From contig JBDTNK010000001.1 in NCBI GenBank assembly GCA_039933775.1, positions 5,938 to 69,937 on the forward strand: 64,000 nucleotides of DNA, given 5' to 3'. Positions 7,941-50,328 of this stretch are shown here, piece after piece (within the stretch, counting starts at the first letter, position 1; each line of letters opens with the position of its first letter). This DNA comes from Chloroflexota bacterium. GTDB lineage: Bacteria > Chloroflexota > Limnocylindria > QHBO01. The position numbers and the translations under genes were made by a program. Below the pieces are notes generated by a model that saw only the letters and a program-made list of their open reading frames with translations, was not told the DNA's origin and searched no databases.

Positions 7941-8609
7941 ATGCCGGGTATCCTTGCCGGCGTACCCATGGCAGCCAGCAAACGGCCGAGCACCTCGAGC
8001 CTCCGCCGATTCATCACATCGCGGCCGTACGTCACCGTCGCCGAGCTGAGGCGCCGGTTCGCTCTCGATGATCCCGACGCCATGTCGTGTCTCGCGCACG
8101 AAGGCGGTCGGGTCTACGTCGGTCTGCCGGAGCGTGAGGCGGTGAAGCTCGAGGATCTCTTGAGACGTGGCGATATCGGCGTCCAGCTGAGCGTCGAGGT
8201 CCGCGCACCGGTCGCGGTCGGCGTCTACCCGATGCGCATCGCGCATTATGTCGTCGACGGCGCCGCGAACGGCAACGACGTCCATCCGGTCGAATCCTTT
8301 ATAGAGACCGATCCAGATGTCGACGGCGCGCAACCGCTCGACGCCGAGATCCCCGCCTTCGAGATCACCGGCCTCGCGGCCGATGTGCCCGATGCCCGGA
8401 CGGTTGACCATGGCGCCGAGCCTGACCATCTTCGCCTCAAGGACGCCATCGCGCCGATGAACGGCATCGGCGATCATCCGTTTCTGCCGCGACCGCGCGG
8501 TGCCAGGGCAACGCGCCACAACGGACGCCCCGTGCCGCACCGCCATCGCCGCATCAGGCACGATCGACCGCAGGATGGGCCAGCGCATTCGCCTTCGGGA
8601 CCGCAATGA
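7941..8609 (+). CDS. Hypothetical protein, translationally coupled to the next gene
   Basis: GC3-rich frame throughout. The stop overlaps the downstream start as ATGA at 8606-8609. No recognisable domain. Confidence 0.35.
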   Translation: MPGILAGVPMAASKRPSTSSLRRFITSRPYVTVAELRRRFALDDPDAMSCLAHEGGRVYVGLPEREAVKLEDLLRRGDIGVQLSVEVRAPVAVGVYPMRIAHYVVDGAANGNDVHPVESFIETDPDVDGAQPLDAEIPAFEITGLAADVPDARTVDHGAEPDHLRLKDAIAPMNGIGDHPFLPRPRGARATRHNGRPVPHRHRRIRHDRPQDGPAHSPSGPQ

Positions 8610-8944
8610 GGGTGGTCGCCATCGCGACCGATCTCATGATGGTGAGCCGCATCGCAGCGGCGGCCGATGTCGCTGCGGTTACGCTGACCCGCCTGAGATC
8701 GCCTCGTGAGCTCGGCCCAGTGGCTGACACCGATCTCGTGATCGTTGATTGGGCGGAGCGGGAGCCGTGGTGGGCCGAATCGCTGGTCGCGTGGCGAGCT
8801 GACGCACAGGTGCCGATCGTCCTCTTCGGGCAGCACACCGACCGCGAGGCGCATAGAGCAGCGCGTGAGGCCGGTCTCGGACCGATGTGGGCCCGATCGC
8901 GCCTCATGCGCGAGCTGCCACGCCTCGTCGCTCCCGCCCGATGA
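8606..8944 (+). CDS. Hypothetical small protein, ATGA-coupled on both sides
   Basis: 112 aa. It is coupled to the upstream hypothetical and to the downstream sulfotransferase, whose ATG at 8941 overlaps the TGA at 8942-8944. Confidence 0.4.
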   Translation: MRVVAIATDLMMVSRIAAAADVAAVTLTRLRSPRELGPVADTDLVIVDWAEREPWWAESLVAWRADAQVPIVLFGQHTDREAHRAAREAGLGPMWARSRLMRELPRLVAPAR

Positions 8945-9861
8945 GCGGCGAACGGCGCCGCCCGGATTTCTTCATTGTCGGCGCGCCGAAATCGGGGACG
9001 ACCGCGATGTACGAGTACCTCAGGGCGCATCCACAGCTCTTCCTGCCTGAGCGCAAGGAGCTTCGGTTTTTCGGCTCCGACCTCGAGGTCCGCGACCGCC
9101 CCCAGCCCAGCCTGGACGCATATCTCGCCTTCTTCGCCGATGGCGGCGAGGCACGGCGGATCGGAACCGCATACGTCTGGTACCTGTATTCGCAGCGCGC
9201 GGCGGCGGAGATCCGCGACTTCGCGCCCAACGCGGACATCATCGCGATGCTGCGCAATCCGATCGAGATGGTGTGGTCCCTCCATTCGGAGCACCTGTTC
9301 AACGGCAACGAGGACATCCGCGACTTCACGGCGGCGCTCGATGCCGAGGCTGACCGTCAGAATGGCCTCCGGATTCCCGCACACGCGCATCTGCCGCAGG
9401 GGCTGCACTACTCGCAGGTCCCGCGCTACGCCGAGCAGCTCGAGCGCTACTTCACCACGTTCGGCCGCGACCGCGTCCACGTCATCCTGTACGACGACTT
9501 CGCGGCCGACGTCCGATCGAGCTATCGGGCCGTCCTGTCATTCCTGGGCGTGGAGCCTGGCTCCTCGCCCCCCGCTTTCGAGGTCATCAACGCCAACAAG
9601 CGCACGCGGAGCGAATGGTTCCGTCACTTCCTGGCTCGTCCGCCCGAGCTGCCGCGCCGGATCATCCGAACCGTTGTTCCGGCCTCGCTGCGGCGCGCCG
9701 CCTACGAGCGCGGCAAGCGGATGAACGTCGCAGCGACGCGTCGCGAGCCTATGCCGTCGGCGACCCGGGAACGGCTCCGGCGCGTCTTCCAGCCCGAGGT
9801 CGAGCGCCTCTCGCTGCTCATCGGTCGTGACCTCAGCGACTGGGTACGGCCGCCTCGGTAG
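8941..9861 (+). CDS. PAPS-dependent sulfotransferase
   Basis: The N-terminal 5'-phosphosulfate-binding loop FFIVGAPKSGTTAM is canonical. There is a 3'-PB-like region MLRNPIEMVWS. Length is about 306 aa. Confidence 0.8.
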   Translation: MSGERRRPDFFIVGAPKSGTTAMYEYLRAHPQLFLPERKELRFFGSDLEVRDRPQPSLDAYLAFFADGGEARRIGTAYVWYLYSQRAAAEIRDFAPNADIIAMLRNPIEMVWSLHSEHLFNGNEDIRDFTAALDAEADRQNGLRIPAHAHLPQGLHYSQVPRYAEQLERYFTTFGRDRVHVILYDDFAADVRSSYRAVLSFLGVEPGSSPPAFEVINANKRTRSEWFRHFLARPPELPRRIIRTVVPASLRRAAYERGKRMNVAATRREPMPSATRERLRRVFQPEVERLSLLIGRDLSDWVRPPR

Positions 9862-10855
9862 CGCCGAGCACCGATTCACATACGTCGAGCAACTGCGCAG
9901 CCGCATCGGCGCCACACAGGCGGATCGTGCAGCCAGCACGCTGCCTGTGGCCGCCGCCGCCAAAGGCGCCTGCGATCTGCGTGGCGTCGACTTCGTCGGT
10001 GACGCGCAGGCTCACACGCGTTTCATCGGGCTTCAGCTCTCGGAGCAGGATCGTGATCTGCGCGCCTTGGGTGCCAGCCAGAAACTCGGCGAACCCGTCA
10101 GCATCGTGCTGCTCGGTTCCGGTCTCCGCCAGCATCTCGGGCAGGAGCACCGAGTACACGATTCGACCATCGGCAGACGCCGCCACGGAGTTGAGCAGCC
10201 GGCCCCAGAGTTGCATCGTCCGGTATGGCAGCTCGCCAAGAATGCGGCGGTGAATGAACGGGAGATCTGCCCCGGCGGCCGCCAGGTCGGCGGCAAGACG
10301 CAGGGTACGCGGCGAGGTCGAGCGGTCGCTGAAGCCGTGGCTGTCACGCACTATCCCCGTCATCAGTGCGGTGGCCAATGCGGGATCGAGGGTGACGCCG
10401 AGGTGGGGGACCAGGTCGGCGATCACCTGGCACGTGGCTGCGGCTGTGGGATCGACGACGTTGATCGACCCGAACCTCGTATTCGTCACGTGGTGGTCGA
10501 TATTGACGATGCGCGCGTCCGCGAACCACGCCGCCCGCTCAAGCGCAATGCTGCCGACCCGCTCGAGCGTGGCCGCGTCGCACACCACTGCCAGGTCGGG
10601 CGGGCCGGACGGCGATGCGACGACGGACCGCATCTCGGACATGTAGTCGTACATCGGGCCTGGGGCGTCGGTGCTCACCACCTCCGCCTGCTTACCGAGG
10701 CTTCGCGCGATGAGCGCCATGGCGACCGCTCCCCCGATCGTGTCGGCGTCGGGGTTCTCGTGGCATAGCGCCGTGACATGGGACGATGCATTGATCGCGG
10801 CGCGCAGCTCCGCGCCGGCAGTGATCGGGTCGAATTGGTTCGTGGGCACGGACAT
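9833..10855 (-). CDS. nrnA: DHH/DHHA1 phosphoesterase, NrnA-like (bifunctional oligoribonuclease / pAp phosphatase)
   Basis: Contains the DHH motif IVNIDHHVTN and the DHHA1 motif GGGHRQRAG. The start was chosen at MSVPTNQF; the track start at 10966 would invade the divergent promoter. Confidence 0.7.
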   Translation of the reverse strand: MSVPTNQFDPITAGAELRAAINASSHVTALCHENPDADTIGGAVAMALIARSLGKQAEVVSTDAPGPMYDYMSEMRSVVASPSGPPDLAVVCDAATLERVGSIALERAAWFADARIVNIDHHVTNTRFGSINVVDPTAAATCQVIADLVPHLGVTLDPALATALMTGIVRDSHGFSDRSTSPRTLRLAADLAAAGADLPFIHRRILGELPYRTMQLWGRLLNSVAASADGRIVYSVLLPEMLAETGTEQHDADGFAEFLAGTQGAQITILLRELKPDETRVSLRVTDEVDATQIAGAFGGGGHRQRAGCTIRLCGADAAAQLLDVCESVLGATEAAVPSR

Positions 10856-11067
10856 CAGGACTCCAACGGAGGGCTCCGCGGCCAGACGGGCGCGGGCCGA
10901 GATTGTAAGCAGACCGCACGCGGAGCGCCCGGACTTCGAACCAAACGCGTCGACTGCGCGCACCACCCGCCGAGCGGAGACGGGGTACTATTGCCGCCGC
11001 CCAACCGGTGAGCGTCCCCACATGCGCGGACGTCGCCCGATGCCATCATTCCACTGGAGATCTCTGC

Positions 11068-12249
11068 ATGTCGATCCCTGTGACCACGTCCGTCCCCCAC
11101 GGCGGCACGCTCATCAACCGCACACTCACCGGTGCGGAGCGCGACTCGGCTCTCAAGCGCGCGGCCGGCCTGCCGCGCGTGACCATCGGCAGCGTCGCCC
11201 TCTCCGACCTGGAACTGATCGGGAACGGCGCCTTCAGCCCGCTGACCGGATTCATGGGCGAGGCCGACTATCTCGGCGTGCGCGACGGCATGCGCCTCGT
11301 GACCGGGCTGCCGTGGTCTATCCCCATCACGCTCGCGGTGGACGGTGCGACCGCGGATACCCTCGAGAATGGCGCGGAAGTCGCGCTGGCGGACGGCGAC
11401 GGTCGCATCGTCGGGATCCTGGAGCTGTCGGAGAAGTATCGCTACGACAAGAGTCAAGAAGCAGCGCAGATCTTCCGCACGACGGAGGAGGCGCACCCCG
11501 CCGTCGCGCGCATCATGGCCGCCGGCGACACCTACCTCGGCGGCAATGTCTGGGTGCTGAACGGTCCGCAGGACCCGCCGTTCGCTGAGTTCCGTCGCAC
11601 CCCAGCCGAGACGCGTGCGATCTTCGCTGAGAACGGCTGGCGCCGTGTCGTTGGCTTCCAGACCCGTAACCCGATCCATCGGGCGCACGAATACCTCACC
11701 AAGGTGGCGCTCGAGACCGTTGACGGACTCATGATCCATCCGCTGGTGGGCGACACGAAGAGCGACGATATTCCGGCCGACGTGCGCATGCGCGCCTACC
11801 AGACCCTGCTGGCGGACTACTACCCGCAGGATCGGACGCTTCTCTCCGTCTATCCTGCGGCGATGCGATATGGCGGGCCGCGAGAAGCGATCTTTCATGC
11901 CATCGCGCGCAAGAACTACGGCTGTACGCACTTCATCGTAGGACGCGACCATGCGGGTGTCGGCAGCTACTACGGAACGTACGACGCGCAACAGATCTTC
12001 GATGAGTTCGACCCAGGCGAGCTCGGGATCACGCCGCTCTTCTTCGAACACACCTTCTGGTGCCACGCCTGCGAGGGGATGGCCAGCTACAAGACCTGTC
12101 CGCATGGCGACGACCAGCACTTGATCCTATCGGGCACGAAGGTGCGCGCGATGCTCTCGAACGGCGAGATGCCCCCGCCCGAGTTCAGCCGGCCACCCGT
12201 CGCGCAGATTCTTATCGAGTCCTACCGCGAGTCCGTCGGCGCCCGCTGA
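11068..12249 (+). CDS. sat: Sulfate adenylyltransferase (ATP sulfurylase)
   Basis: Carries the [11 protein letters not shown] motif, a GRDHAGVG loop and a PUA-like N-terminus. The start was chosen at [15 protein letters not shown] (ATG at 11068). Confidence 0.85.
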
Positions 12250-12282
12250 CGATCCACCACCGCACTGGAGCACAATCCTCTG

Positions 12283-12948
12283 ATGACCGACACCGATACC
12301 GCGCCGCGATCCGGTGGTCCCACCGTCTCGACGACGACCGCGACCACCGCATCGGGCGAAACTATTCACCTTGGCGGTGGCGCGGGCACGCGCCACGACC
12401 GCGAGACGACCGGATTCACGGTCTGGTTCACCGGTCTCTCCGGCTCCGGCAAGAGCACGATCACCCACCTCATCGAAGCGGAACTTCGCCGCCGTGGCCA
12501 CAAGGTCGAGGTGCTCGACGGGGACGTCGTGCGCACCCACCTTTCGAAGGGCCTCGGCTTCAGCAAGGAAGATCGCGACACCAACATCCTTCGCATCGGA
12601 TGGGTCTGCGAAGTCCTGAGCCGGAACGACGTCGTCGCGATCGCGGCGGCGATCAGTCCGTACCGCGACATCCGGGACCAGCTCCGTCGCGACATCGGCC
12701 GCTTCGTCGAGGTCTATGTCGAGGCACCACTCGAGGTGCTCGCCGACCGTGACGTGAAGGGCCTGTACCGCAAGGCGATGGCCGGCGAGATCAAGGGCTT
12801 TACCGGCGTGGACGACCCGTACGAGGCGCCACTCAATCCGGAGGTCGTCTGCCACTCGGACGGCCGCGAAACGCCGGAGGAGAGTGCCGCGAAGGTGATT
12901 GCAAAGCTGGAGGAGCTCGGCTACTCGCAGCCGAACGAGACCCGCTGA
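12283..12948 (+). CDS. cysC: Adenylylsulfate (APS) kinase
   Basis: The P-loop is [12 protein letters not shown], and the rest is an APS-kinase-like body. Its stop overlaps the next gene as TGATG. Confidence 0.85.
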
Positions 12949-14270
12949 TGCGTCCGCGGCGGCGCGTCATCGTCGTCGCTCTCGACGGGCTTGGAATCGA
13001 CCTCTTTCGCGGAGCTCTGGCGCGCGGACACATTCCACATCTCGCAGCGCTGGCCGGACCTGGGGGGCCACGGGCGATTGCGACGCGGCCCCCGGCGAGC
13101 CCCCAGGCCGCGTGGACCACGTTCACGACGGCCTCGAATCCGGGGCGACACGGGATCTTCGGTCTCACGCATCCCGGTCGGCAGCTGCGTATTCGCATCG
13201 CCAGCGCCGACCACGTTCGGATGCCGACATTGTGGGACCGAGCAGCGACCGACGGACTCCGGTCGGTCGTCGTTGGCCTTCCCGGCACGTACCCGGCGCG
13301 CCGAATGTCGGGCTCAATGGTCGCCGGTTACGTCGTTCCCAACCCAGAGCGCCTGTGCTACCCGCGTGCGCTGTCCGCACGCGTCGCTGAGGCAGGGTAT
13401 AGGTCCGATATCGATGTGCGTACGGCGGCGAGCGATCCTGAGCGGTTTGCCGCGGAGCTGCTCACATCTGTCGAGCGCCGAATCGAGGTGATGCGACAAC
13501 TGCTGAAGCACGACCGCTGGTCGCTGGCAGTCCTTGCGTTTACCGAGCTTGATCGATGGGGTCACGCCTGGCGGCGGCGTGTCGCCGCCGGTGATCATGA
13601 CGCCCTGGTGGTCGGCGACTCGATCTTGTCATCGATCGATCGCTTCTTCGGCTTCTTGCGCGAGGCGTATGGAGCCGCCAAATTCCAGGTCCTGTCCGCC
13701 AATGGCATTGCCCCCGTGGACCATCTGCTCAACCTTGATGGATGGCTCAGAGATGCCGGCTACCTTCACCGGGAGGACGGCCAGCTCGGCGGCAGGACTG
13801 TTGCGTTCTCGATGGAAGCCGGCCGAATCTACATCCACGCGACGCGCATGTTCGCCGACGGGAGGCTCGGTGGCGGCTCGGTGTTGCCGTTGATGGACGA
13901 GATCGCTGAAGGACTGACGGCGCTGCGCTCGCCCGACGGCGCCCTCCCGTTACAGGCCGTCGTCCGCCGGCGTGATCTATACGACGGACCTCACGCACGC
14001 GTCGGCCCGCATCTCGTGGCCGTGCCTGCACCGGGGTGGGCGGTTGTCAGCTCTCGGAAGCTTCCCCTGGTCAGCAAAGCTGCGGATTTCGAGGGTGGTC
14101 ACCGACATGACCTGGCGTTCGCCGTCGGCGACGCCGCGGACGATGGCTCACCGGTGACCCTGGAAGACCTCGGCGCGACCGTCCTCGCGGATCTGGCGGT
14201 GTATGACGATGACGTGGATGGCACGGCTCTTCGTGCTGGTGGGGCCAAGGCGCAACGCAACTCACGATGA
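12948..14270 (+). CDS. Alkaline-phosphatase-superfamily protein (type I phosphodiesterase / nucleotide pyrophosphatase-like)
   Basis: The N-terminus VIVVALDGLGIDLF is typical of PF01663-like AlkP-core enzymes. The gene is 440 aa and translationally coupled to cysC. Confidence 0.55.
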   Translation: MRPRRRVIVVALDGLGIDLFRGALARGHIPHLAALAGPGGPRAIATRPPASPQAAWTTFTTASNPGRHGIFGLTHPGRQLRIRIASADHVRMPTLWDRAATDGLRSVVVGLPGTYPARRMSGSMVAGYVVPNPERLCYPRALSARVAEAGYRSDIDVRTAASDPERFAAELLTSVERRIEVMRQLLKHDRWSLAVLAFTELDRWGHAWRRRVAAGDHDALVVGDSILSSIDRFFGFLREAYGAAKFQVLSANGIAPVDHLLNLDGWLRDAGYLHREDGQLGGRTVAFSMEAGRIYIHATRMFADGRLGGGSVLPLMDEIAEGLTALRSPDGALPLQAVVRRRDLYDGPHARVGPHLVAVPAPGWAVVSSRKLPLVSKAADFEGGHRHDLAFAVGDAADDGSPVTLEDLGATVLADLAVYDDDVDGTALRAGGAKAQRNSR

Positions 14271-14422
14271 CCTGAGGTCGCTCGGTGCTTGAGCGCACCA
14301 TCGTGCCGCCGCGCGCTATTGCGCTGGCCGTACCCTTGCCTCAGGATCGCGACTAGTACTTATTACTCACTTATCACCCACTTATCGGCTAGATTCAGCC
14401 GGGTGGGGGACGCACGGGGCGA
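14270..14422 (+). promoter_or_regulatory. AT-rich intergenic region upstream of the priming transferase operon (putative promoter)
   Basis: The only markedly AT-rich stretch in the window is gactagtacttattactcacttatcacccacttatcggctag. It contains reiterated TTAT(C/T)AC-like words and precedes a long co-directional gene run. Confidence 0.3.
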
Positions 14423-14455
14423 GTGCCTTCGCCCCGAGGGGAGGCCCAGCGTTAC

Positions 14456-15178
14456 ATGGTCACCATCCGACGGCGTACCGTCGCATCGCTCGAAGTGCCA
14501 CGAGCGGTGCAGCCCCGAGCGCAGGCGCGGCCTCCGGCCGCGTTGACGTCTCGTCGAAAGCGAGCTTTCGATCTGATCGCGAGCGTCGCCATATTCGTCA
14601 TCATCTCGCCACTCTGGTTCTTGATCGCGCTCGCGATCAAGCTGAGCTCGCCTGGCCCTGTGCTGTTCCGCCAGGAGCGGATCGGTGTCGGTGGCCAGCC
14701 GTTTACGCTCTACAAGTTCCGCACGATGCACAACGGGGTCAGCGATGAGGTGCATCGGCGTTTCGTTACCGGGATGATTCTCGGCAGCGTCGAATCGACG
14801 GCAATCTCAGCGTATGACGGAGCCTTCAAGCTCGCCCGTGATGCTCGAGTGACGGTGGTTGGGCGCTGGCTGCGGCGGACCTCGCTCGACGAGCTGCCGC
14901 AGCTCCTCAACGTGATCGCGGGGGACATGTCGCTCGTCGGTCCTCGGCCGCCCCTCGCGTACGAGGTTGATCGGTATGAACCATGGCAGCACGAGCGACT
15001 GAGTGTGCTGCCCGGGATCACCGGGCTGTGGCAGGTCTCGGGACGCAACCGCCTCAGCTATCTGGACATGATCCGGCTGGACATTGCCTACGCGAGAGAC
15101 TGGACGTTCCGCCGCGATCTGCTCATTGCGATCAAGACGCCGTGGACGATGTTCGTCGATCGCGGGGGTGCTGCGTGA
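14456..15178 (+). CDS. Undecaprenyl-phosphate sugar-1-phosphate transferase (bacterial sugar transferase family, priming glycosyltransferase)
   Basis: The single N-terminal TM is AFDLIASVAIFVIISPLWFLIALAI. It also has RIGVGGQPFTLYKFRTM and the catalytic motif LDELPQLLNVIAGDMSLVGPRP, typical of WbaP C-terminal/PssY-type enzymes. Confidence 0.85.
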   Translation: MVTIRRRTVASLEVPRAVQPRAQARPPAALTSRRKRAFDLIASVAIFVIISPLWFLIALAIKLSSPGPVLFRQERIGVGGQPFTLYKFRTMHNGVSDEVHRRFVTGMILGSVESTAISAYDGAFKLARDARVTVVGRWLRRTSLDELPQLLNVIAGDMSLVGPRPPLAYEVDRYEPWQHERLSVLPGITGLWQVSGRNRLSYLDMIRLDIAYARDWTFRRDLLIAIKTPWTMFVDRGGAA

Positions 15179-16293: not shown

Positions 16294-16418
16294 CGGCCGT
16301 TGCGCCCGACGGCGCACGATGGGTCGGGCCTGAATGAGCAAGGCTCGGCCGATGGGTGCTGCGCCGGGCGGTTTCGACAGCGGTCGACTAGGATACGCCA
16401 ACAAACCTGAGGTATGCG

Positions 16419-22405: not shown

Positions 22406-22483
22406 GGAATCCGACTCTGGACGGGTCACACAGGAGGGGGCACAATGGGCCATCCGCAATCATCCAACAGTACTTGAGGGGGC

Positions 22484-24739: not shown

Positions 24740-24760
24740 ACCCGGAAATCGCACCCGTCC

Positions 24761-29092: not shown

Positions 29093-29096
29093 ACCG

Positions 29097-37689: not shown

Positions 37690-37818
37690 GGATTACCCGC
37701 GTGGTACTAGCGGCGCGCCGAGACCATTGCTCGGCGCCGGTAGCCCCATTGACCGATACCCGTCGCGCTGGCGCGGACGTAGGCTCCCTGGAGTACCTCA
37801 CCGAGCGGGGAGTCCCTA

Positions 37819-41005: not shown

Positions 41006-41142
41006 GGGATGGTGCATTCGGGGCCGCGACTATACCCGACCCCCGATTGGCGCTTCCCGCCGCCCGGGGTATCATGCGCCGGTGGCCCAGCCCGAGCGGG
41101 CAACTGAGGCCGCCGGAGTGTGTCCCCTCCAAAGCAAGGTCC

Positions 41143-42588: not shown

Positions 42589-43582
42589 CGGCCATCCGGT
42601 GACATCCCAAGCCAGGCGCGCGCTCGTCACGGGTGGCGCGGGGTTCATCGGCAGCACACTCGTTGACCGGCTTCTCACAGACGCGTGGCAGGTCACCGCG
42701 GTCGACTCGTTCGACCCGTATTACGAACGCAGGCGCAAAGAGCTGAATCTCGGCGACGCCGTCACTTCGCCACGGTTTCGGCTCATCGAGGCAGATACCC
42801 GCGACGCCGACGCGTTGGCCGCCGCCTTCGACGAGGCGCGTCCCGAGGTCGTCTTCGACCTCGCGGCCAGAGCCGGCGTTCGCCCCTCGATCGCGGACCC
42901 GGGTGCGTACGTGGCGACGAACGTCGTTGGGCTGCAGCGCACCCTCGACAACGTCGCTCGCCATGCGGCGCGGCTCGTCTTCGCGTCGTCGAGCTCGATC
43001 TACGGCGTGGACGAGCGACGGCCGTTCCGCGAGGACCAGGCACGTGGACGGCCGATCTCGCCGTACGGCGCGACGAAGGTGGCAGGGGAGGCGCTATGCC
43101 ATGCCCACCACGCCATCACCGGGCTTCCCGTCGGTGTTGCCCGCCTCTTCACCGTCTACGGGCCCAGGCAGCGGCCCGATCTTGCCATTCACTCCTTCGC
43201 TTGGCGAATGCTGAAGGGAGAGCCGATCGAGCTCTTCGACGAGGGGCGTCCGTTGCGCGACTACACCTACGTCGACGACCTCGTGGACGCGCTCGTGCGA
43301 CTCGCTGGGATCGACGACCCCTGGCTCGTCGTGAACCTCGGCAGCGACCGTCCCATCGCCGTGACGGAGATGGTCGGCGAAATCGAGCGCGCGCTCGGCG
43401 CGATCGCCGAACGGCGCCTGGTGCCACCCCAACCCGGCGATGTGCCGGGGACGCACGCCGACATCACACGCGCAGCGGAGCGCCTCGGCTGGCGGCCCAC
43501 GACGCCGTTTCCGGTTGGGATCGACCGATTCTGTGCCTGGTTGCGGCTCGAGATGGACGAGCTCGCCCTCAGTCGGACCTGA
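42554..43582 (+). CDS. NAD-dependent epimerase/dehydratase (extended SDR; UDP-glucuronate 4-epimerase/decarboxylase-like)
   Basis: The Rossmann motif is ALVTGGAGFIGSTLV and the catalytic motif is YGATK. A GTG at 42599 is a likely alternative start, just after the upstream stop. Confidence 0.75.
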   Translation: MDSPARILCGRDGHPVTSQARRALVTGGAGFIGSTLVDRLLTDAWQVTAVDSFDPYYERRRKELNLGDAVTSPRFRLIEADTRDADALAAAFDEARPEVVFDLAARAGVRPSIADPGAYVATNVVGLQRTLDNVARHAARLVFASSSSIYGVDERRPFREDQARGRPISPYGATKVAGEALCHAHHAITGLPVGVARLFTVYGPRQRPDLAIHSFAWRMLKGEPIELFDEGRPLRDYTYVDDLVDALVRLAGIDDPWLVVNLGSDRPIAVTEMVGEIERALGAIAERRLVPPQPGDVPGTHADITRAAERLGWRPTTPFPVGIDRFCAWLRLEMDELALSRT

Positions 43583-44918
43583 TCGCCTCCACGCGTCGCT
43601 GCCCATCGCGGCGCCCGATCGACAGCATCGTCAGCCCAGCCGCCTCCACGCGATCCGCGTCGAGCGCATCCCGCGCATCCAGCAGAACGCGGCCGCGCAT
43701 CACGTCCGCGATCGGTCCCAGGTCCGCGGTGACATACTCGGCCCAGTCGGTGGCCAATACCACGGCATCCGCGCCGGTCGCGGTGCGGATCGGGTTGTCC
43801 GCGATTTCGATCCAGGGCTCGCGGCTCGCGACGATCGATGCCGCCTGCGGATCGCACGCCACGACCGTCGCCCCGCGCTCGCGCAACACCTCGGCCAGGA
43901 GCAGCGCGGGAGAATCACGGATATCGTCGGTTCCCGCCTTGAACGCCAGGCCAAGCAGCCCGACCCGCGCGCCCTGGAGGCCGTCGGGGATGGCTCGATC
44001 GAGGCGGTGCGCGACGCGGATCGGCTGCGTCGCGTTCACTGCGTCAACCGCGCGCGCGAGCGTCATCTCGACGCCGCGTGCTTTACCCATCGCGATCATC
44101 GAACGAACGTCCTTGGGCAGGCAGGATCCGCCGTAGCCGATCCCGGGCTTGAAGTAGTCCGAACCGATGCGAGGATCGGCGGCGACCGCATCGAGGACCG
44201 AGTCGATCGCCGCACCGGTCGCTTCGCAGAGCGCGGCGAGCTCGTTGACGAAGCTGATCCGCGCCGCGAGGTAGGTGTTCGAGGCGTTCTTGACCAGCTC
44301 GGCACTCTCGGCGTCGAGCACGAAGATGGGTGCGCCGAGGGGCCGATACAGCGTCTCCAGCGTATCGACGTCGGCATCGGTGGCCGTCTCCGTGCGCCCG
44401 AGCACCACGCGGCTCGGGTGCAGGAAGTCGTCGAGCGCGCGACCGGTGCGCAGGAACTCGGGGTTGGCAACGACCGCGACACCCTGGGGACCGCCGCGCT
44501 CACGAAGGAGGCCGTTCAGCATGGCCTCCACGCGCCGCGTCGTGCCCACCGGCACCGTGCTGCGCAGCGCGACCACTGTCCGCGAGCCGAGATGGCGAGC
44601 GAGCGACTCGATGACGCTCTCGACCGCGGTCAGGTCAGCCTCGCCGGTGGCGCTCGATGGCGTCCCCACGCAGACGAGCACGACGTCGGGCTCGCGCAGC
44701 GCGTCCGCCGGATCCGACGTGAAGCGCAGCCCGCCGTTGCCCTGCAGCGCGGTGAGCTCCCCCTGGAGATGGGGTTCGTAGTACGGCGCCTCCCCGCGTT
44801 CGAGCGAGGCGACCTTGTCCACGTCGGACTCGAGGCCGGAGACGCGCTGCCCAAGCCGGGCCAGGCAAGTGGCGGTTACGAGCCCGACGTAGCCCAGGCC
44901 GACCACGGTGATGTGCAC
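43569..44918 (-). CDS. ugd: UDP-glucose 6-dehydrogenase
   Basis: The N-terminus is (V)HITVVGLGYVGLVTATCL, the catalytic region is GYGGSCLPKD, and the C-terminal region has GLAFKAGTDDIRDSP. The start is a GTG. Confidence 0.85.
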   Translation of the reverse strand: MHITVVGLGYVGLVTATCLARLGQRVSGLESDVDKVASLERGEAPYYEPHLQGELTALQGNGGLRFTSDPADALREPDVVLVCVGTPSSATGEADLTAVESVIESLARHLGSRTVVALRSTVPVGTTRRVEAMLNGLLRERGGPQGVAVVANPEFLRTGRALDDFLHPSRVVLGRTETATDADVDTLETLYRPLGAPIFVLDAESAELVKNASNTYLAARISFVNELAALCEATGAAIDSVLDAVAADPRIGSDYFKPGIGYGGSCLPKDVRSMIAMGKARGVEMTLARAVDAVNATQPIRVAHRLDRAIPDGLQGARVGLLGLAFKAGTDDIRDSPALLLAEVLRERGATVVACDPQAASIVASREPWIEIADNPIRTATGADAVVLATDWAEYVTADLGPIADVMRGRVLLDARDALDADRVEAAGLTMLSIGRRDGQRRVEAIRSD

Positions 44919-44923
44919 GAAAA

Positions 44924-46300: not shown

Positions 46301-46322
46301 GCCGGTGCTGGCGGCCGGCCCT

Positions 46323-47246
46323 CTAGCTCAGTCGGGCGCCGGGCTGCAGCCTCGGGTCATCGGTCAGCGGACTCCCTGCCAATCGCAGCTCGCGCAGCAC
46401 GATCCGGCCGCCGGGTGCGGCGACAACCGGGCTGCCGGCCTCGATCCCGATGATCTCGCCGGGCCGGCCACGGTGCGGGAGTCGGTCCCAGGCCACGGCG
46501 GCCACCTCGATGCGACGGCCCTCGGACGCGATCTCAGGGTACTGGAAGGGCGGGAAGATGAAGGCGCGCATGCGATCCGCGATGCGCCTGCAATCGTCGT
46601 CCCAGCGGACGAGACGCTCTGAGAAGTCCAGCGCCCAGCGGTTGTAGTACAGCGCCGCCGTGTCGTCCTGGGGCGTTCCCGGCACGGTCTCCAGGAGCCG
46701 AATCTCGGGCCAGGCGGCAGCAAAGAGCGTGATCCCGGTTTCAACGCAGCGGTCGTAGACGACCCGTCCGGTGTCGTCCGGGCCGATCGTCACCGACGAG
46801 GAACGCACCAGCGGTCCGCTGTCGACTCCCGGATCGATATGGTGGAGTGTGACGCCGGTTGCCGTCTCGCCGTTCATGATCGCCCAGGCGATGGGCGCCA
46901 CGCCACGGTAGCGGGGCAGCGGTCCGTAGTGCAGGTTGAGGGCTGCGACGCTCGCCGTGGCAATGAGCGGTGCACGAAGAATTGGACCCGCCTGGAAGGA
47001 AAGCAGGAATTCGGGCCGCAGCGCCGCGACGTCGGCCACGGCGGACGGATCATTGACATTCACCGGATCGAGCACCCGGTGCCCGCCGCGCCGGGCTGCG
47101 GCGCGAAGCGACGGCTGCCAACCATCTGCTCCGTCGTCGTGCGCGTCGACGATGACGCCGACGATCTCATCGCCGGCCTTCATCACGATCTCGAGTGCGG
47201 CGACGGCGAGGCCGGTGCGTCCGATGATCACGACCCGGCGCTTCAT
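46323..47246 (-). CDS. N10-formyl-THF-dependent formyltransferase (Fmt/ArnA-N/sugar N-formyltransferase family)
   Basis: The catalytic-core motif is ALNLHYGPLPRYRGVAPIAWAIMNGETATGVTLHHID (HxSLLPxxRG...G.T.H). The N-terminus has a Rossmann-like motif RVVIIGRTG. Confidence 0.75.
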   Translation of the reverse strand: MKRRVVIIGRTGLAVAALEIVMKAGDEIVGVIVDAHDDGADGWQPSLRAAARRGGHRVLDPVNVNDPSAVADVAALRPEFLLSFQAGPILRAPLIATASVAALNLHYGPLPRYRGVAPIAWAIMNGETATGVTLHHIDPGVDSGPLVRSSSVTIGPDDTGRVVYDRCVETGITLFAAAWPEIRLLETVPGTPQDDTAALYYNRWALDFSERLVRWDDDCRRIADRMRAFIFPPFQYPEIASEGRRIEVAAVAWDRLPHRGRPGEIIGIEAGSPVVAAPGGRIVLRELRLAGSPLTDDPRLQPGARLS

Positions 47247-47803
47247 CGCCGCACCTCGTCGGGCAGGCGTCGATCGGTCCCCTCCGCGCGCCGCCGCCGC
47301 GGCGGCACGAACCCCTCGCTGAGGATCACTTCACCGGCTTCCGGGCGCTGATCACCGAGCGTGTGGCTCGCTGCCAGCTTCATTCGTTCGAGTCGGACGT
47401 TGCGGATCCGCCGCGCGAACCACGACCGCCCGAGCCGCGACCACGCGATCGCGCCCGCCAGACCGCTCACCGAATCGATGACGACGTCCATCAGCATCGG
47501 AGTCCTCCCTGGAACGAATGACTGGTGCAGCTCGTCGACGATCGCATAGAGCGCGACGAAGACGACCGCCCACCAGGTCCGCCGACTCAGCCGGGAGCGG
47601 TCCATGGCGTGCGCCGTGAGCACGCCCAGGATCGAGAACACGACGACGTGTCCCACCTTCGCCAACCCGAAGCGCCAGCGTCCCAGGCCCTCACCAAGGT
47701 CCGGCTGGCTCGACAGGATGAAGATGACGGTCATCCAGGCAACGACCGCCGTCCACGCAACGATGGGAGAGACGCCGGGGCGACGGCGTGCAAGCTGGGG
47801 CAT
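47243..47803 (-). CDS. VanZ-like family membrane protein
   Basis: TM helices plus the VanZ motif IVDELHQSFVPGRTP. It overlaps the formyltransferase start by 4 nt. The start was chosen at MPQLARR. Confidence 0.5.
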   Translation of the reverse strand: MPQLARRRPGVSPIVAWTAVVAWMTVIFILSSQPDLGEGLGRWRFGLAKVGHVVVFSILGVLTAHAMDRSRLSRRTWWAVVFVALYAIVDELHQSFVPGRTPMLMDVVIDSVSGLAGAIAWSRLGRSWFARRIRNVRLERMKLAASHTLGDQRPEAGEVILSEGFVPPRRRRAEGTDRRLPDEVRR

Positions 47804-47894
47804 CTGCGAAGAGAATAGCGGTACGACGCGCGCTCGGCCGAAGGCAGCCGAGCGTAGCGACTGTCGCAAGCAGCGTCGCCGCTCGGGAGGAACG

Positions 47895-49088
47895 ATGAAT
47901 CGGACGACGCCACCCCGTCACTGCATGGTGGTCGACAATTACTACCCGGACATCCGGGTCGAGCGGGAGGCACGCGCGCTCGCGCACCGAGGTCACGAGG
48001 TCGACATCATCTGCCTTCGAAACGAGGGCGAGCCGGCGCTCGAGCGGGCGGACGGCATCACCGTGCATCGGCTACCCGTTCGGCGCAAGCGAGGCGAGAG
48101 CCTTGGAGTGCAGCTCCTCGAATACGTGTCGTTCTGCGTCCGCGCCGGCGTTCTCCTGACCCGCCGCCACCTCCAGCGGCGCTATGACGTGGTCCAGGTC
48201 CACAACGTCCCGAACTTCCTCGTCTTCAGTGCGATCGCGGCGAAGCTTTCCGGGACGCCAATCATCCTCGACATGCACGACCTGATGCCCGAGTTCTTTG
48301 CCAGCCGTTTCGGTGGGCGCCCAGACTCGCTGCGCATGCGCCTGGTGCGCCTCGAGGAGCGGTTGAGCGCGGCATTTGCCGACCAGCTCCTGACGGTGAC
48401 CGATCTCTGGGCCGGGGCGCTCATCGAGCGAGGGCAACGTCCCGAGCGAGTGGGCGTGGTGATGAACCTGCCGGACGAGGAACTGTTCGCGCCGGTCCCT
48501 CCTCAGATCCGTGAGGCGCCCGACCCGCTCACCCTCGTCTACCACGGGACCATCACGTTCCGATATGGGATCGATATCCTGCTGCGCGCCCTGGCCACTG
48601 TCCGCGCCCGTCGCTCGGTGAAGCTCGTCCTCCACGGCCGCGGCGAGTACCTGCCCGAGGTCGAGCGCCTGATCGACGAGCTCGGCCTGCACGACGCAGT
48701 CGAGGTCAGTACCGCGCTCCTGCCGACCGGCGAGCTGCAAGCCATCATCGGCAAGGCGGACATCGGCATCGTGCCGAACCGGCGCGACGTGTTCACCGAC
48801 GGAATTCTTCCGACCAAGCTCATGGAATACGCGGCGCTTGGGATCCCGGCCATCGTCTCTCGGACAAGCGCCACCGAGGCCTATTTCAGCGACGAGATGG
48901 TTCGCTTTGTCCCGGCTGGCGATCCGGTGGCGCTAGCCGACGCGATCCTGGAGCTTGGCGCCGAACCGCGGACACGCGAGGCGCTCGCGCGCCAGGCGCA
49001 GACGTTCACCGAGCAGCACCGGTGGTCCGATGAGGCTTGGCGCTATGTCGAGCTCGTCGAGCGCCTCGGCGGCCACGGGCTGGGGTGA
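47895..49088 (+). CDS. Glycosyltransferase family 4
   Basis: The start was chosen at MNRTTPPRHCMVVDNYYP. The C-terminal motif is GIVPNRRDVFTDGILPTKLMEYAALGIPAIVSRTS. Confidence 0.8.
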   Translation: MNRTTPPRHCMVVDNYYPDIRVEREARALAHRGHEVDIICLRNEGEPALERADGITVHRLPVRRKRGESLGVQLLEYVSFCVRAGVLLTRRHLQRRYDVVQVHNVPNFLVFSAIAAKLSGTPIILDMHDLMPEFFASRFGGRPDSLRMRLVRLEERLSAAFADQLLTVTDLWAGALIERGQRPERVGVVMNLPDEELFAPVPPQIREAPDPLTLVYHGTITFRYGIDILLRALATVRARRSVKLVLHGRGEYLPEVERLIDELGLHDAVEVSTALLPTGELQAIIGKADIGIVPNRRDVFTDGILPTKLMEYAALGIPAIVSRTSATEAYFSDEMVRFVPAGDPVALADAILELGAEPRTREALARQAQTFTEQHRWSDEAWRYVELVERLGGHGLG

Positions 49089-49230
49089 GGCCCGTTGCGT
49101 TCACGCCACGCTGTCTGCTGCCAGCACCTCCCCCGCAGGTGACCTGCTTCAGCGGAGTCGCTACCCTGTGGCGCGCGACGTCGTCAAGCGCGCTGCCCTA
49201 TTCGAACGACGAAGTGGAGACAGACCAAGG

Positions 49231-50328
49231 ATGATCCCGATTGCCCGCCCGCAGATGGGCACCGAAGAACGTGACTCGGTCTGGAGCGCCCTCAGCTCCG
49301 GCCAGCTGGCCCAGGGAGCGAAGGTCAAGGAATTCGAGGAGCGCTTTGCGACGTTCGTCGGCGCGCCGTATGCGGTGGCTACCAGCTCGGGCACCACGGC
49401 GCTGCATCTCGCACTGCTCGGCCTGGGCGTCGGTCCCGGTGACGAGGTGATCACCGTATCGTTCACGTTCACCGCCACCGTCAGTCCGATCCTGCACGTC
49501 GGGGCGCGACCAGTCTTCGTGGACGTCGACGCCGCGACATTTACCATGGATCCGGCTGGAGTTGAAGCCGCGATCACGCCGAGGACCCGGGCCATCATTC
49601 CGGTCAGCCTGTATGGGCACCCCGCGCCGATGCCGGAAATCACCGCGATCGCCGAGAGGCACGGGATCCCGGTCATCGAAGACGCCTGCCAGGCCCACGG
49701 CGCAACGCTGGACGGTCGGTCCAGCGGCGGATGGGGGATCGGCGTCTTCAGCTTCTACCCCACCAAGAACATGACCACCGGCGAGGGTGGAATCATCACG
49801 ACCAACGACGAGGGCTTAGCCGAGCGAACGCGGCTGCTTCGCGAGCACGGCATGCGGGAGCGCTACCGACCGGACATCCTCGGCTACAACTTTCGGATGA
49901 CCGATGTCCACGCCAGCATCGGGCTGCCGCAGCTTGACAAGCTGCCGGCCGCCAACGCGCGGCGCCAGGCGATCGCGCAGCGGTACACGAGCGAGCTGCA
50001 CGGTGTCATCACGCCGACCGTCCGTCGTGGCGCGACGCACGTGTATCACCAGTACACGCTGCGCGTCGGTCAGCGTGATGCGTTCGCCGAGTCTCTCGCG
50101 GGACAGGGCGTCGGCTCGAACGTCTATTACCCTGTTCCTGTCGATCGTCAGCGGCCACTCATCGAGCTTGGGTTCAGCGGCGGTGTGCTGCCCGTGACCG
50201 AGCGACTCACCGACGAGATCCTCTCGATTCCGGTGCACCCCGCCCTGAGCGACGAGGAGGTCGCGACCGTCGTCCGCGCCGTGAACGCCACCGCCGCGGA
50301 GCTCGGGCCGCCGTCGACGGGGGACTGA
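49231..50328 (+). CDS. DegT/DnrJ/EryC1/StrS-family PLP-dependent nucleotide-sugar aminotransferase
   Basis: The start was chosen at MIPIARPQMGTEE. It has a PLP-lysine region FSFYPTKNMTTGEGG. Length is about 365 aa. Confidence 0.85.
   Translation: MIPIARPQMGTEERDSVWSALSSGQLAQGAKVKEFEERFATFVGAPYAVATSSGTTALHLALLGLGVGPGDEVITVSFTFTATVSPILHVGARPVFVDVDAATFTMDPAGVEAAITPRTRAIIPVSLYGHPAPMPEITAIAERHGIPVIEDACQAHGATLDGRSSGGWGIGVFSFYPTKNMTTGEGGIITTNDEGLAERTRLLREHGMRERYRPDILGYNFRMTDVHASIGLPQLDKLPAANARRQAIAQRYTSELHGVITPTVRRGATHVYHQYTLRVGQRDAFAESLAGQGVGSNVYYPVPVDRQRPLIELGFSGGVLPVTERLTDEILSIPVHPALSDEEVATVVRAVNATAAELGPPSTGD

Follow-up and report, generated by a model that had tools for sequence, protein, structure and literature searches.

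The stretch of DNA considered here (the window) comprises 64,000 nucleotides (nt) of contig JBDTNK010000001.1 (assembly GCA_039933775.1) from a metagenome-assembled genome (MAG) of Candidatus Limnocylindria, an abundant uncultured class of soil and freshwater Chloroflexota. It contains a locus of about 43 kb which combines nine putative sulfotransferase genes with genes for the supply of 3'-phosphoadenosine 5'-phosphosulfate (PAPS), for polysaccharide assembly of the Wzx/Wzy type and for sugar tailoring, and which probably serves the synthesis of a sulfated polysaccharide. Around 37 genes are situated between a proline dehydrogenase gene (ending at 7847) and cysS (51151-52563, minus strand), with nearly no intergenic space, and synteny places the natural boundaries at about 7941 and 51134.

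Genes in the window (G+C content around 69%) were called from third-position GC content and frame plots; mechanical lists of open reading frames (ORFs) were swamped by spurious frames. Starts were refined with candidate start codons and gene calls on related contigs, and the called ORFs were scanned against Pfam (gathering scores) and NCBIfam (curated cut-offs), to which the bit scores and cut-offs below refer. Related loci (designated by L numbers) were taken from the contexts of three homologues and from species-representative genomes searched with a profile of the co-polymerase of the locus, a Wzz-type protein fused to a GGDEF domain (Wzz-GGDEF); the ORFs of these loci were then compared with the window proteins by BLAST.

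Sulfotransferases and PAPS supply

The nine sulfotransferase genes (ST1 to ST9) are listed here; XssA and XssE are the sulfotransferases of the cyanobacterial synechan cluster compared further below, and 5'-PSB and 3'-PB denote the 5'-phosphosulfate-binding and 3'-phosphate-binding motifs.

8941-9861, plus strand: ST1, XssA-like; Sulfotransfer_3 59 bits, Sulfotransfer_1 43 bits; motifs PKSGTT and RNP (the ORF opens at 8887; its probable start, the ATG at 8941, overlaps the stop codon of the gene before)
26218-27183, plus strand: ST2; Sulfotransfer_3 105 bits; motifs SRSGTT and RDP; its ATG overlaps the stop codon of the polymerase gene (Wzy) by 4 nt
27180-28169, plus strand: ST3, XssE-like; Sulfotransfer_3 67 bits; 47% identity to ST5
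28166-29092, plus strand: ST4; Sulfotransfer_3 56 bits; 5'-PSB loop LDHGGKT
29097-30113, plus strand: ST5; Sulfotransfer_3 108 bits
30101-31057, minus strand: ST6; Sulfotransfer_3 111 bits; 36% identity to ST2; start at 31057 or 31021
31023-31916, minus strand: ST7; Sulfotransfer_3 55 bits
31909-32712, minus strand: ST8, Sulfotransfer_2 type; Sulfotransfer_2 24.6 bits (cut-off 22); motifs PRTGST and RNP
40064-41005, minus strand: ST9; Sulfotransfer_3 56 bits, also Sulfotransfer_1; 5'-PSB loop SAYSGST

The original prediction for this DNA had counted nine PAPS-type sulfotransferase paralogues, and the count holds: each of the nine passes a sulfotransferase hidden Markov model (ST8 narrowly) and exhibits both PAPS motifs, i.e., a 5'-PSB loop of the xxSG[TS]T type near the N-terminus and a 3'-PB motif (R[DN]P or RDV) around 100-150 residues further on. 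Eight of the nine lie above the gathering score with 55-111 bits for Sulfotransfer_3 (cut-off 27), some of them matching Sulfotransfer_1 as well. Neither a signal peptide nor a transmembrane helix is predicted in any of the nine proteins, all of which are predicted to be soluble and cytoplasmic. Homologues of ST5 with 57-83% identity are numerous and mostly labelled Candidatus Limnocylindria, and an identical protein (100%), annotated as a sulfotransferase, occurs on a contig of 118 kb in an NCBI MAG labelled 'Chloroflexota bacterium'. For ST7, the identity of orthologues is 51-79% among the Limnocylindria relatives and 37-39% in loci of the Anaerolineae type, and the ST8 orthologue in L005 is independently labelled PF03567.

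The genes for Wzy, ST2, ST3 and ST4 are joined by start/stop overlaps of 4 nt, and ST5 follows directly; sulfation and polymer assembly are therefore predicted to be co-expressed. Nine sulfotransferases within 43 kb, with an array coupled to Wzy, are far beyond chance. Identity among the paralogues is mostly below 36% and reaches 47% at maximum, such that two groups, ST3/ST4/ST5 (36-47%) and ST2/ST6 (36%), stand beside the singletons ST1, ST7, ST8 and ST9. Every paralogue has orthologues of around 45-80% identity in Limnocylindria whose Wzz-GGDEF protein is only 40-48% identical to that of the window; the duplications are thus older than the radiation of the class, and all copies were retained. 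By these comparisons the sulfotransferases appear to constitute at least six ancient, separately conserved lineages, and their separate retention argues for non-redundant roles, most simply at distinct positions or residues of one repeat unit. If the repeat has about five sugars (see below), nine sulfation steps would give up to around 1.8 sulfates per sugar as an upper bound.

It might instead be that the product carries only one or a few sulfates, with the nine enzymes being alternative or redundant (for different conditions or acceptors) and some of them inactive, in which case no complexity like that of glycosaminoglycans would arise. The 5'-PSB loops of ST4 and ST9 are atypical, the number and order of sulfotransferase genes differ among the relatives (about 4 to 9 per visible locus), and deletion of xssE, one of the two synechan sulfotransferase genes, had little phenotype (PMC8205485). 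However, the retention of each lineage as an orthologue across deep divergence speaks for non-redundant functions, and ST2 to ST5 are predicted to be co-transcribed with Wzy and translationally coupled; we consider a sparsely sulfated product improbable.

Concerning the acceptor, some or all of the sulfotransferases might act on something other than a glycan (lipids, secreted peptides, protein tyrosine or small molecules), and merely neighbour a polysaccharide locus. In the PDB, ST5 is closest to the polyketide-associated sulfotransferase domains of CurM/OLS and to the protein-tyrosine sulfotransferase TPST, and an unexplained kinase/nucleotidyltransferase gene pair lies among the sulfotransferase genes. 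Against such a non-glycan acceptor, which seems very unlikely to us, stand the interleaving of sulfotransferase genes with Wzy and glycosyltransferase genes through overlapping start and stop codons, the recurrence of this interleaving in loci of Limnocylindria, Anaerolineae and Caldilineae, the homology of ST1 and of ST3 and ST5 to the synechan polysaccharide sulfotransferases, and the absence from the locus of any polyketide synthase, nonribosomal peptide synthetase or precursor-peptide gene. Sulfuryl transfer from PAPS to a carbohydrate acceptor is predicted, with homology to XssA and XssE and the operon context as the only, indirect support.

The genes for the putative supply and recycling of PAPS follow ST1, together with a phosphodiesterase gene:

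9833-10966, minus strand: DHH/DHHA1 phosphoesterase (Pfam DHH and DHHA1), NrnA-like phosphatase of 3'-phosphoadenosine 5'-phosphate (pAp)/oligoribonuclease
11008-12249, plus strand: sat, ATP sulfurylase; ATP-sulfurylase and PUA_2 domains; NF003166 555.9 bits (cut-off 387)
12283-12948, plus strand: cysC, adenosine 5'-phosphosulfate (APS) kinase; APS_kinase 201 bits; NF002059 273 bits (cut-off 244)
12948-14270, plus strand: phosphodiesterase/pyrophosphatase of the alkaline-phosphatase superfamily (PF01663); Phosphodiest 91 bits

As sat and cysC both exceed curated NCBIfam cut-offs, the PAPS-generating module that had been predicted is confirmed. The by-product of sulfuryl transfer, pAp, inhibits sulfotransferases, and the NrnA-like DHH protein would complete a module of PAPS supply and recycling. 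It matches Rv2837c of M. tuberculosis and NrnA structures at E 1e-34, but scores only 85 bits against the NrnA equivalog of NCBIfam (cut-off 350). Its gene lies between ST1 and sat, and the place beside ST1 is kept in the relatives.

That sat, cysC and the DHH gene are ordinary assimilatory or housekeeping genes which lie here by chance, and are not dedicated to glycan sulfation, strikes us as quite unlikely. It would agree with the NrnA score far under the cut-off, with NrnA-type enzymes being usually housekeeping, and with the variability of the interval that separates the DHH gene from the priming transferase gene and holds sat, cysC and the phosphodiesterase gene, the latter alone, or an SLC13-type transporter gene (L005/L022, one contig). 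On the other hand, APS kinase is needed for PAPS but not for the assimilation route via APS reductase, and sat-cysC is also found beside the Wzz-GGDEF gene in the distant Anaerolineae/Caldilineae loci L035, L037 and L039. Co-localisation of such genes has been considered a hallmark in Vibrio (PMC11641403); and even if the enzymes were shared with assimilation, the sulfotransferases need the product. The PF01663 gene, for whose protein neither an NCBIfam match nor a match among PDB sequences was found, is kept immediately upstream of the priming transferase gene in the relatives, with or without sat-cysC. The transporter of L005 (positions 1-1382, immediately upstream of the priming transferase gene) is an SLC13/CitMHS-type anion transporter with a TrkA_C domain and may be a dedicated sulfate importer.

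Assembly line, co-polymerase and sugar tailoring

The machinery for polymer assembly is encoded by the following genes, with GT4 standing for glycosyltransferase family 4:

14423-15178, plus strand: small priming polyprenyl-phosphate sugar-phosphate transferase; Bac_transf 208 bits (cut-off 27); EPS_sugtrans C-terminal domain; one hydrophobic helix
16419-17558, plus strand: Wzz-type co-polymerase fused to a degenerate GGDEF domain; Wzz 35 bits (cut-off 25.5); GGDEF; CpsC-family TIGR01006
17539-19122, plus strand: Wzx flippase; Polysacc_synt 108 bits, Polysacc_synt_3, MatE; at least 9 transmembrane segments
24761-26221, plus strand: putative Wzy polymerase (Wzy_C family); Wzy_C 69 bits (cut-off 31.7); 12 hydrophobic segments
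32833-34047, plus strand: GT4 glycosyltransferase a; Glycos_transf_1 145 bits, Glyco_transf_4
34044-35330, plus strand: GT4 glycosyltransferase b; Glyco_trans_1_4, Glycos_transf_1
35327-36376, plus strand: GT4-like glycosyltransferase c; weaker matches to Glyco_trans_4_4, Glyco_trans_1_2 and Glycos_transf_1
47895-49088, plus strand: GT4 glycosyltransferase d; Glyco_trans_4_4, Glycos_transf_1; 397-aa gene call in L001

Of the assembly line proposed originally, the priming transferase, Wzx, Wzy_C and Wzz proteins are all present, whereas there are four GT4 genes instead of five: no remaining ORF matches a glycosyltransferase family, and a fifth gene was rejected. The orthologues of GT4c in the relatives match the same families as GT4c itself. 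A repeat unit of about five sugars is probable, given a single priming transferase and four GT4 enzymes. The Wzy_C protein is read as the polymerase from its context. Among the scanned ORFs of the window, none matches an outer-membrane polysaccharide exporter (OPX/Wza, Poly_export), as had been noted before and as is expected for a monoderm; the monoderm inference likewise fits the Chloroflexota source and the Gram-positive-type (CpsC-like) co-polymerase.

In this co-polymerase, a short external Wzz domain lies between two transmembrane helices (residues 5-23 and 172-190), and a cytoplasmic GGDEF domain follows. The position of the GG[DE]EF motif, i.e., the dead active site, reads DDMTF in the window protein and is unconserved across 23 family members except for the final Phe. 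Five residues upstream, the RxxD I-site has been kept: R277 is present in at least 90% of the sequences, and E279 and D280 are invariant in the 23 members. Profile alignment to solved cyclases places RxxD opposite RKSD and the degenerate motif opposite GGEEF. We take the loss of GG[DE]EF with retention of RxxD to be the signature of receptors of cyclic di-GMP (c-di-GMP) such as PelD, and by this motif the domain would be a catalytically dead c-di-GMP receptor of the PelD type.

Degenerate GGDEF domains serve as c-di-GMP receptors of polysaccharide machines in PelD (Pseudomonas), PssE (Listeria) and YdaK (Bacillus). Equally to these, the domain in the window is membrane-anchored and cytoplasmic, has lost GG[DE]EF and kept RxxD, and is encoded inside a polysaccharide operon; however, PelD, PssE and YdaK belong to synthase-dependent systems and are not co-polymerases, whereas the window domain is fused to a Wzz/CpsC-type polysaccharide co-polymerase (PCP) of a Wzy-dependent pathway. 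In Gram-positive systems a CpsD tyrosine kinase (BY-kinase) takes the position partnering the co-polymerase; no CpsD-type tyrosine kinase is encoded in the locus. The contigs in which full-length relatives of Wzz-GGDEF were found are, nearly without exception, attributed to Chloroflexota (Limnocylindria, Anaerolineae, Caldilineaceae, Promineifilaceae), and a literature search for degenerate GGDEF domains with co-polymerases returned nothing relevant. The fusion may represent a new way to couple c-di-GMP to Wzy-dependent polymerisation.

The tailoring enzymes and two lyase-like proteins are encoded as follows (GlcA, glucuronic acid; GalA, galacturonic acid; SDR, short-chain dehydrogenase/reductase):

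15175-16293, plus strand: Gfo/Idh/MocA oxidoreductase, nucleotide-sugar 3-dehydrogenase-like; GFO_IDH_MocA N- and C-terminal domains; start inferred from frame plot and candidate start codons
36373-37689, plus strand: nucleotide-sugar 6-dehydrogenase 1; UDPG_MGDP_dh N-terminal, central and C-terminal domains; TIGR03026 404 bits (cut-off 190)
37819-40074, plus strand: secreted protein in which a Pro/Thr linker joins three CWB2 repeats to a pectate-lyase-like beta-helix; CW_binding_2 165 bits, 3 repeats
41152-42588, plus strand: membrane-anchored or secreted pectate-lyase-like beta-helix protein; match to pectate lyase 9buj
42554-43582, plus strand: extended SDR, probable UDP-GlcA 4-epimerase (or decarboxylase); Epimerase, GDP_Man_Dehyd
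43569-44918, minus strand: nucleotide-sugar 6-dehydrogenase 2; UDPG_MGDP_dh domains; TIGR03026 398 bits
46323-47246, minus strand: sugar N-formyltransferase-like protein; Formyl_trans_N, Formyl_trans_C; best in NCBIfam PRK06988 and the ArnA formyltransferase domain, below cut-off
49231-50328, plus strand: DegT/DnrJ/EryC1 sugar aminotransferase; DegT_DnrJ_EryC1 414 bits; best in NCBIfam PseC and ArnB, below cut-off

All tailoring enzymes named in the original prediction are thus present (two with UDPG_MGDP_dh domains, the extended SDR, GFO_IDH_MocA, DegT and Formyl_trans_N/C), as is a lyase-like protein anchored by CWB2 repeats. An identical 6-dehydrogenase 2 is found on a Logan contig from SRR26386610, within an identical stretch of 15.8 kb. 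The SDR is nearest to UDP-GlcA 4-epimerases, followed by UDP-GlcA decarboxylases (PDB matches 5u4q, 9e-62; B. cereus UDP-GlcA 4-epimerase 6zl6, 1e-46; MoeE5, 5e-42; UXS, around 1e-37). The two beta-helix proteins, the catalytic domain of the CWB2 protein being a paralogue of the other, reach 20-21 bits for Pectate_lyase_4 (cut-off 24); that of 41152-42588 reaches 61 bits for PelZ of NCBIfam (cut-off 840) and matches 9buj at E 1e-11 over around 260 residues, and both likely belong to the pectate-lyase fold family. Enzymes of this type cut beside uronic acids by beta-elimination. Since the SDR is closest to UDP-GlcA 4-epimerases, and as the two pectate-lyase-like proteins fit, UDP-GalA and/or UDP-GlcA is a likely donor. 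The uronic-acid inference is strengthened thereby, and SDR and lyases together point to galacturonate in the polymer. The best NCBIfam match of the Gfo/Idh/MocA protein is UDP-GlcNAc 3-dehydrogenase (143 bits, below cut-off); the protein, together with DegT and the ArnA-like formyltransferase, suggests an N-formylated amino sugar.

A polymer with these constituents might also be a covalently anchored envelope glycan: a secondary cell-wall polymer attached to peptidoglycan, or else an S-layer or protein O-glycan with the Wzy_C protein functioning as a ligase or an O-oligosaccharyltransferase. In that case the wall would owe its fixed negative charge to sulfation, which would take the role of teichoic or teichuronic acids. 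Halobacterial S-layer glycans, which are sulfated while lipid-linked, are a precedent. The conservation of a core locus at a fixed site throughout the class (see below) would be expected for an essential envelope component rather than for an accessory exopolysaccharide, a CWB2-anchored enzyme is encoded within the locus, and the single Wzy_C protein belongs to a family that includes ligases. However, neither a LytR-CpsA-Psr (LCP) transferase nor a second Wzy_C protein or an oligosaccharyltransferase was found among the scanned ORFs in or near the locus, the combination of co-polymerase, Wzx and one Wzy_C protein is the standard polymerase set, and lyases are typical of released uronate polymers. 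An anchored glycan is conceivable, though we regard it as somewhat unlikely.

Between Wzx and Wzy, two further genes attract attention:

19119-20633, plus strand: two-domain protein with a Pol-beta-type nucleotidyltransferase fold and a thymidylate-kinase-like P-loop domain
20630-22405, plus strand: thymidylate-kinase-like P-loop domain fused to an APH-family kinase; APH 77 bits; overlap of 4 nt with the preceding gene

The N-terminal domain of the second protein is homologous to the P-loop domain of the first (hhalign 93.6%); the second protein retains Walker A, KRYK, HGDxxxxN and D[FY]E, with the catalytic motifs of its APH-family kinase intact, and it matches homoserine kinase 2ppq at E 2e-9. 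The translationally coupled pair travels with sulfotransferase arrays in several classes of Chloroflexota. Activation of a phospho-substituent (by the logic of kinase plus nucleotidyltransferase), sugar phosphorylation or nucleotide recycling are possible roles. The idea of an embedded toxin or defence module, suggested by a MenT-like fold, was dropped, as no PADLOC family matches the pair or the unassigned proteins, and a role of the pair as cryptic sulfotransferases was rejected. The gene pair, the GGDEF fusion and the indication of galacturonate had not been pointed out in the original prediction, nor had the second beta-helix protein.

Conservation, comparison with known systems and proposed pathway

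The locus is found between the same flanks, zwf-opcA-pgl-proline dehydrogenase and cysS, in many Limnocylindria genomes. Following proline dehydrogenase, the order there is two small genes, ST1, the DHH phosphatase gene, (sat, cysC, phosphodiesterase), priming transferase and Gfo/Idh/MocA, continuing with Wzz-GGDEF, Wzx, (Wzy), two kinase-like genes and the sulfotransferase array, and after this GT4 genes, a dehydrogenase gene and, further on, formyltransferase, GT4 and DegT, before cysS. Neither a tRNA nor an Rfam match exists in the window, no integrase or transposase was found among its scanned ORFs, and the dip in GC content is mild (0.64-0.70 in the locus, 0.70-0.72 in the flanks). The term 'island', under which 8606-50328 had been described, is therefore the wrong word: that the genes form one contiguous locus holds, whereas the boundaries are wider (those given above) and horizontal acquisition does not apply. 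The locus is an ancestral core locus of Candidatus Limnocylindria and not a recently acquired island.

Looser versions occur in MAGs of Anaerolineae, Caldilineaceae, Litorilinea and Promineifilaceae (L029, L033, L035, L037-L039), all with Wzz-GGDEF and Wzx, some with sulfotransferases of the ST3/5/7 types and the kinase-like genes, others with sat-cysC nearby. A full locus of the Limnocylindria type with the same flanks and 42-88% identity was also seen in L012 (DASRYM010000033.1), a contig binned as 'Candidatus Zixiibacteriota' which is probably a mis-binned Chloroflexota contig. The locus is not syntenic with any known non-sulfated cluster, only with uncharacterised loci of Limnocylindria and other Chloroflexota. 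Literature searches combining Limnocylindria or Chloroflexota with sulfotransferase returned nothing relevant, and the main comparative-genomics paper on Limnocylindria mentions neither sulfation nor exopolysaccharide.

The closest characterised system, and the only sulfated-exopolysaccharide cluster dissected genetically, is the xss cluster for synechan on plasmid pSYSM of Synechocystis sp. PCC 6803 (Maeda et al. 2021, PMC8205485), in which two sulfotransferases are encoded along with eight glycosyltransferases. Its proteins were taken from the RefSeq entry of pSYSM (NC_005229.1) and compared with the window proteins by BLAST. Both are of the Wzx/Wzy type, have sulfotransferase genes among glycosyltransferase genes and possess no OPX gene in the cluster. 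For 5 of the 14 xss proteins compared (two sulfotransferases, two glycosyltransferases, the priming transferase), homologues are detectable in the window at 22-40% identity: XssA resembles ST1 (24% identity, E 4e-21), XssE resembles ST3 and ST5 (22-25%, E around 1e-18; ST3 25%, E 9e-19), XssI resembles GT4b (33%, E 4e-50), and XssP resembles the priming transferase (40%). The checks on sequence proposed at the outset, by profile searches and by comparison with sulfated-exopolysaccharide loci, came out in favour of the original interpretation, which is supported to the extent that sequence analysis allows.

Despite this similarity, there are clear differences between the two: Wzx, Wzy and PCP show no BLAST similarity, the gene order is not common to both, and the regulators XssQ, XssR and XssS are absent from the window. 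The window contains nine sulfotransferases and four GT4 enzymes with a priming transferase, whereas the xss cluster has two sulfotransferases and eight glycosyltransferases. Likewise, xss possesses neither PAPS genes nor a pAp phosphatase gene, whereas sat, cysC and an NrnA-like gene are present in the window; the xss co-polymerase, a large PCP, has a BcsQ/tyrosine-kinase-like ATPase, in contrast to the Wzz-GGDEF fusion; and the xss cluster is plasmid-borne in a diderm cyanobacterium, whereas the window locus is chromosomal and core. The window locus is of the same kind as xss, with members of both synechan sulfotransferase subfamilies, but not an orthologous cluster.

In Vibrio sp. KMM 8419, three sulfotransferases and a second cysDNC are encoded in a capsule region of around 80 genes, the product of which is chemically proven to be sulfated; the authors consider PAPS genes and sulfotransferases inside a polysaccharide locus a hallmark of sulfated polysaccharide synthesis (PMC11641403). 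The window shares this arrangement. However, the Vibrio capsule is exported by an ABC transporter (Kps) in a diderm, whereas the window encodes a Wzx/Wzy system; the sulfurylase is of the cysDN type in Vibrio and sat in the window; and the Vibrio cluster is associated with mobile elements and strain-specific, whereas the window locus is conserved across its class. A sulfated capsule with genomic analysis is also reported for Cobetia marina KMM 1449 (PMC11766843). For wps-1 of Actinoplanes missouriensis, with two sulfotransferases, sulfation has not yet been verified (PMC13390465). Similarly to the window, wps-1 is a Wzx/Wzy system of a monoderm with sulfotransferases of different families, and its protein-kinase-like WpsI parallels the APH-type kinase; it differs, by its published description, in having two sulfotransferases and in that neither PAPS genes nor a GGDEF fusion are reported. 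For Pontiella, a sulfated-polysaccharide cluster with one sulfotransferase has been proposed.

The combination of PAPS genes, sulfotransferases and polysaccharide assembly is thus of a kind already described. The earlier claim of an undescribed system is valid for the lineage and the variant, not for the principle, which is known from cyanobacteria, Vibrio and Cobetia, with Actinoplanes and Pontiella as proposed further cases. What distinguishes the window locus is the number and diversity of sulfotransferases, the in-locus module of sat, cysC and the NrnA-like gene and the monoderm Chloroflexota host, and further the class-wide core status, the fusion of a PCP with a degenerate GGDEF domain and the kinase/nucleotidyltransferase pair. 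Nine sulfotransferases, with a ratio of sulfotransferases to glycosyltransferases above 1, exceed any comparator in the literature found.

Taken together, the locus likely encodes the Wzx/Wzy-dependent biosynthesis of a heavily sulfated heteropolysaccharide of uronic acids and amino sugars in a monoderm soil bacterium of Candidatus Limnocylindria. In the proposed pathway, Sat and CysC would make PAPS, the two UDP-sugar 6-dehydrogenases and the SDR would provide GlcA and/or GalA, and the 3-dehydrogenase-like enzyme, DegT and the formyltransferase would provide the N-formylated amino sugar. At the cytoplasmic face, the priming transferase and the four GT4 enzymes would assemble a unit of about five sugars on polyprenyl phosphate, and there the nine soluble PAPS-dependent sulfotransferases would sulfate the lipid-linked unit at distinct positions before flipping by Wzx, the pAp by-product being cleared by the NrnA-like phosphatase. 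Sulfation of the polyprenyl-diphosphate-linked repeat before flipping is the simplest model because the sulfotransferases are predicted to be cytoplasmic, PAPS is cytoplasmic and the Wzy and sulfotransferase genes overlap. Wzx would then flip the polyanionic unit and Wzy polymerise it under the control of the Gram-positive-type co-polymerase, whose dead GGDEF domain with an intact I-site would place it under c-di-GMP in the manner of PelD. The two secreted pectate-lyase-like enzymes, one of them tethered to the wall by its CWB2 repeats, might trim or release the polymer, and the nucleotidyltransferase–TMK-like and TMK-like–APH (TMK, thymidylate kinase) proteins might add a further step.

Several observations weigh against this reading. 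The 5'-PSB loops of ST4 (His) and ST9 (Tyr) are without the usual Arg/Lys, and these two enzymes may be weak or inactive; ST8 just clears the Pfam threshold. Since Sulfotransfer_3 also holds protein-tyrosine and polyketide sulfotransferases, acceptor specificity is not readable from sequence. In the relatives L009, L010, L014, L022 and L036, sat-cysC is not part of the locus, and because of this and of the usual housekeeping function of NrnA, the 'dedicated PAPS module' may be partly coincidental. The Wzy_C family also covers ligases and O-oligosaccharyltransferases, and among the scanned ORFs of the locus none encodes a ligase, an LCP transferase or an exporter; therefore the polymer could be released, wall-linked or protein-linked. 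Binding of c-di-GMP is read from the I-site motif, and the whole case is made in silico from a MAG.

A bolder version appears rather unlikely to us: the core envelope component of Limnocylindria would be a hypersulfated galacturonate/amino-sugar polymer with a charge density near that of heparin, gated by c-di-GMP through a new class of co-polymerase, with the kinase/nucleotidyltransferase pair installing or activating a further anionic substituent by a chemistry hitherto undescribed in glycans.

As late as 2021 to 2026, papers describe bacterial sulfated polysaccharides as essentially confined to cyanobacteria, and beyond these, sulfated polysaccharides have been chemically shown only in a few marine Gammaproteobacteria. 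The locus leads us to expect a multiply sulfated glycan as a core trait of an entire class of monoderm soil bacteria, within the limits that all of this is predicted from MAGs and that the general principle is already known. If true, there would be a terrestrial, non-phototrophic source of sulfated polymers, with bearing on cation binding, water retention and organic sulfur in soil; around nine diverged bacterial carbohydrate sulfotransferases for the enzymatic synthesis of glycosaminoglycan-like molecules; and a new coupling of c-di-GMP signalling to Wzy-dependent polymerisation.

Further genes of the locus and its flanks

The remaining genes of the locus are the following:

7941-8609, plus strand: conserved 222-aa leader gene with a low-complexity tail; no Pfam, NCBIfam or PADLOC match
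8606-8944, plus strand: conserved 112-aa protein; no family match (Pfam/NCBIfam)
22484-24739, plus strand: secreted NHL-repeat beta-propeller protein with a C-terminal CBM_4_9; NHL, CBM_4_9, SdiA-regulated; N-terminal hydrophobic, signal-like segment
44924-46300, plus strand: polytopic membrane protein, Na/Pi-cotransporter-like; Na_Pi_cotrans 34.8 bits (cut-off 29.1); nine hydrophobic segments
47243-47803, minus strand: VanZ-like membrane protein; VanZ 55 bits; 186-aa gene call in L001
50427-51134, plus strand: Cys-rich protein with a C-terminal transmembrane helix; no family match (Pfam/NCBIfam)

Homologues of the 222-aa gene are situated directly after proline dehydrogenase in most Limnocylindria loci. 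The 112-aa protein exhibits an invariant motif, GPHTDL..H...GLGPMWARS, and its gene invariably accompanies the 222-aa gene and ST1 in the relatives; a profile of 11 sequences gave nothing significant among PDB sequences, and by eye only it looks like a small alpha/beta, receiver-like protein. Both genes may be regulators of the locus. The NHL/CBM protein is present in some relatives only. The gene at 50427-51134 was not detected in the relatives, where DegT abuts cysS, and its membership of the locus is doubtful.

The upstream flank (238-7847) is of housekeeping character, with a gene resembling that of phosphoglucose isomerase (PGI) and genes for 6-phosphogluconate dehydrogenase (6PGD), zwf, opcA, pgl and proline dehydrogenase. 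The first of these (238-1935, plus strand), upstream of 6PGD-zwf-opcA-pgl, encodes a protein of 565 aa with a weak and partial phosphoglucose-isomerase match (38 bits), which may belong to the pentose-phosphate operon as a PGI-type enzyme, either divergent or fused.

Downstream, cysS (minus strand) is followed by a Nudix gene, two ketosynthase genes and an acyltransferase gene. The stretches 53759-57347 and 58748-59824 (both minus strand), past cysS and Nudix, comprise the two adjacent ketosynthase genes, the acyltransferase gene and, after an M20 peptidase gene, the gene for a Caroten_synth-family membrane protein; they may constitute a small pathway for lipids or pigments that has no relation to the glycan locus. 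Finally, a single ORF at 62328-63179 (minus strand) combines a MerR-type helix-turn-helix with a domain resembling low-molecular-weight phosphotyrosine phosphatase/ArsC, and lies beside genes for a luciferase-like monooxygenase and a transporter of the major facilitator superfamily.

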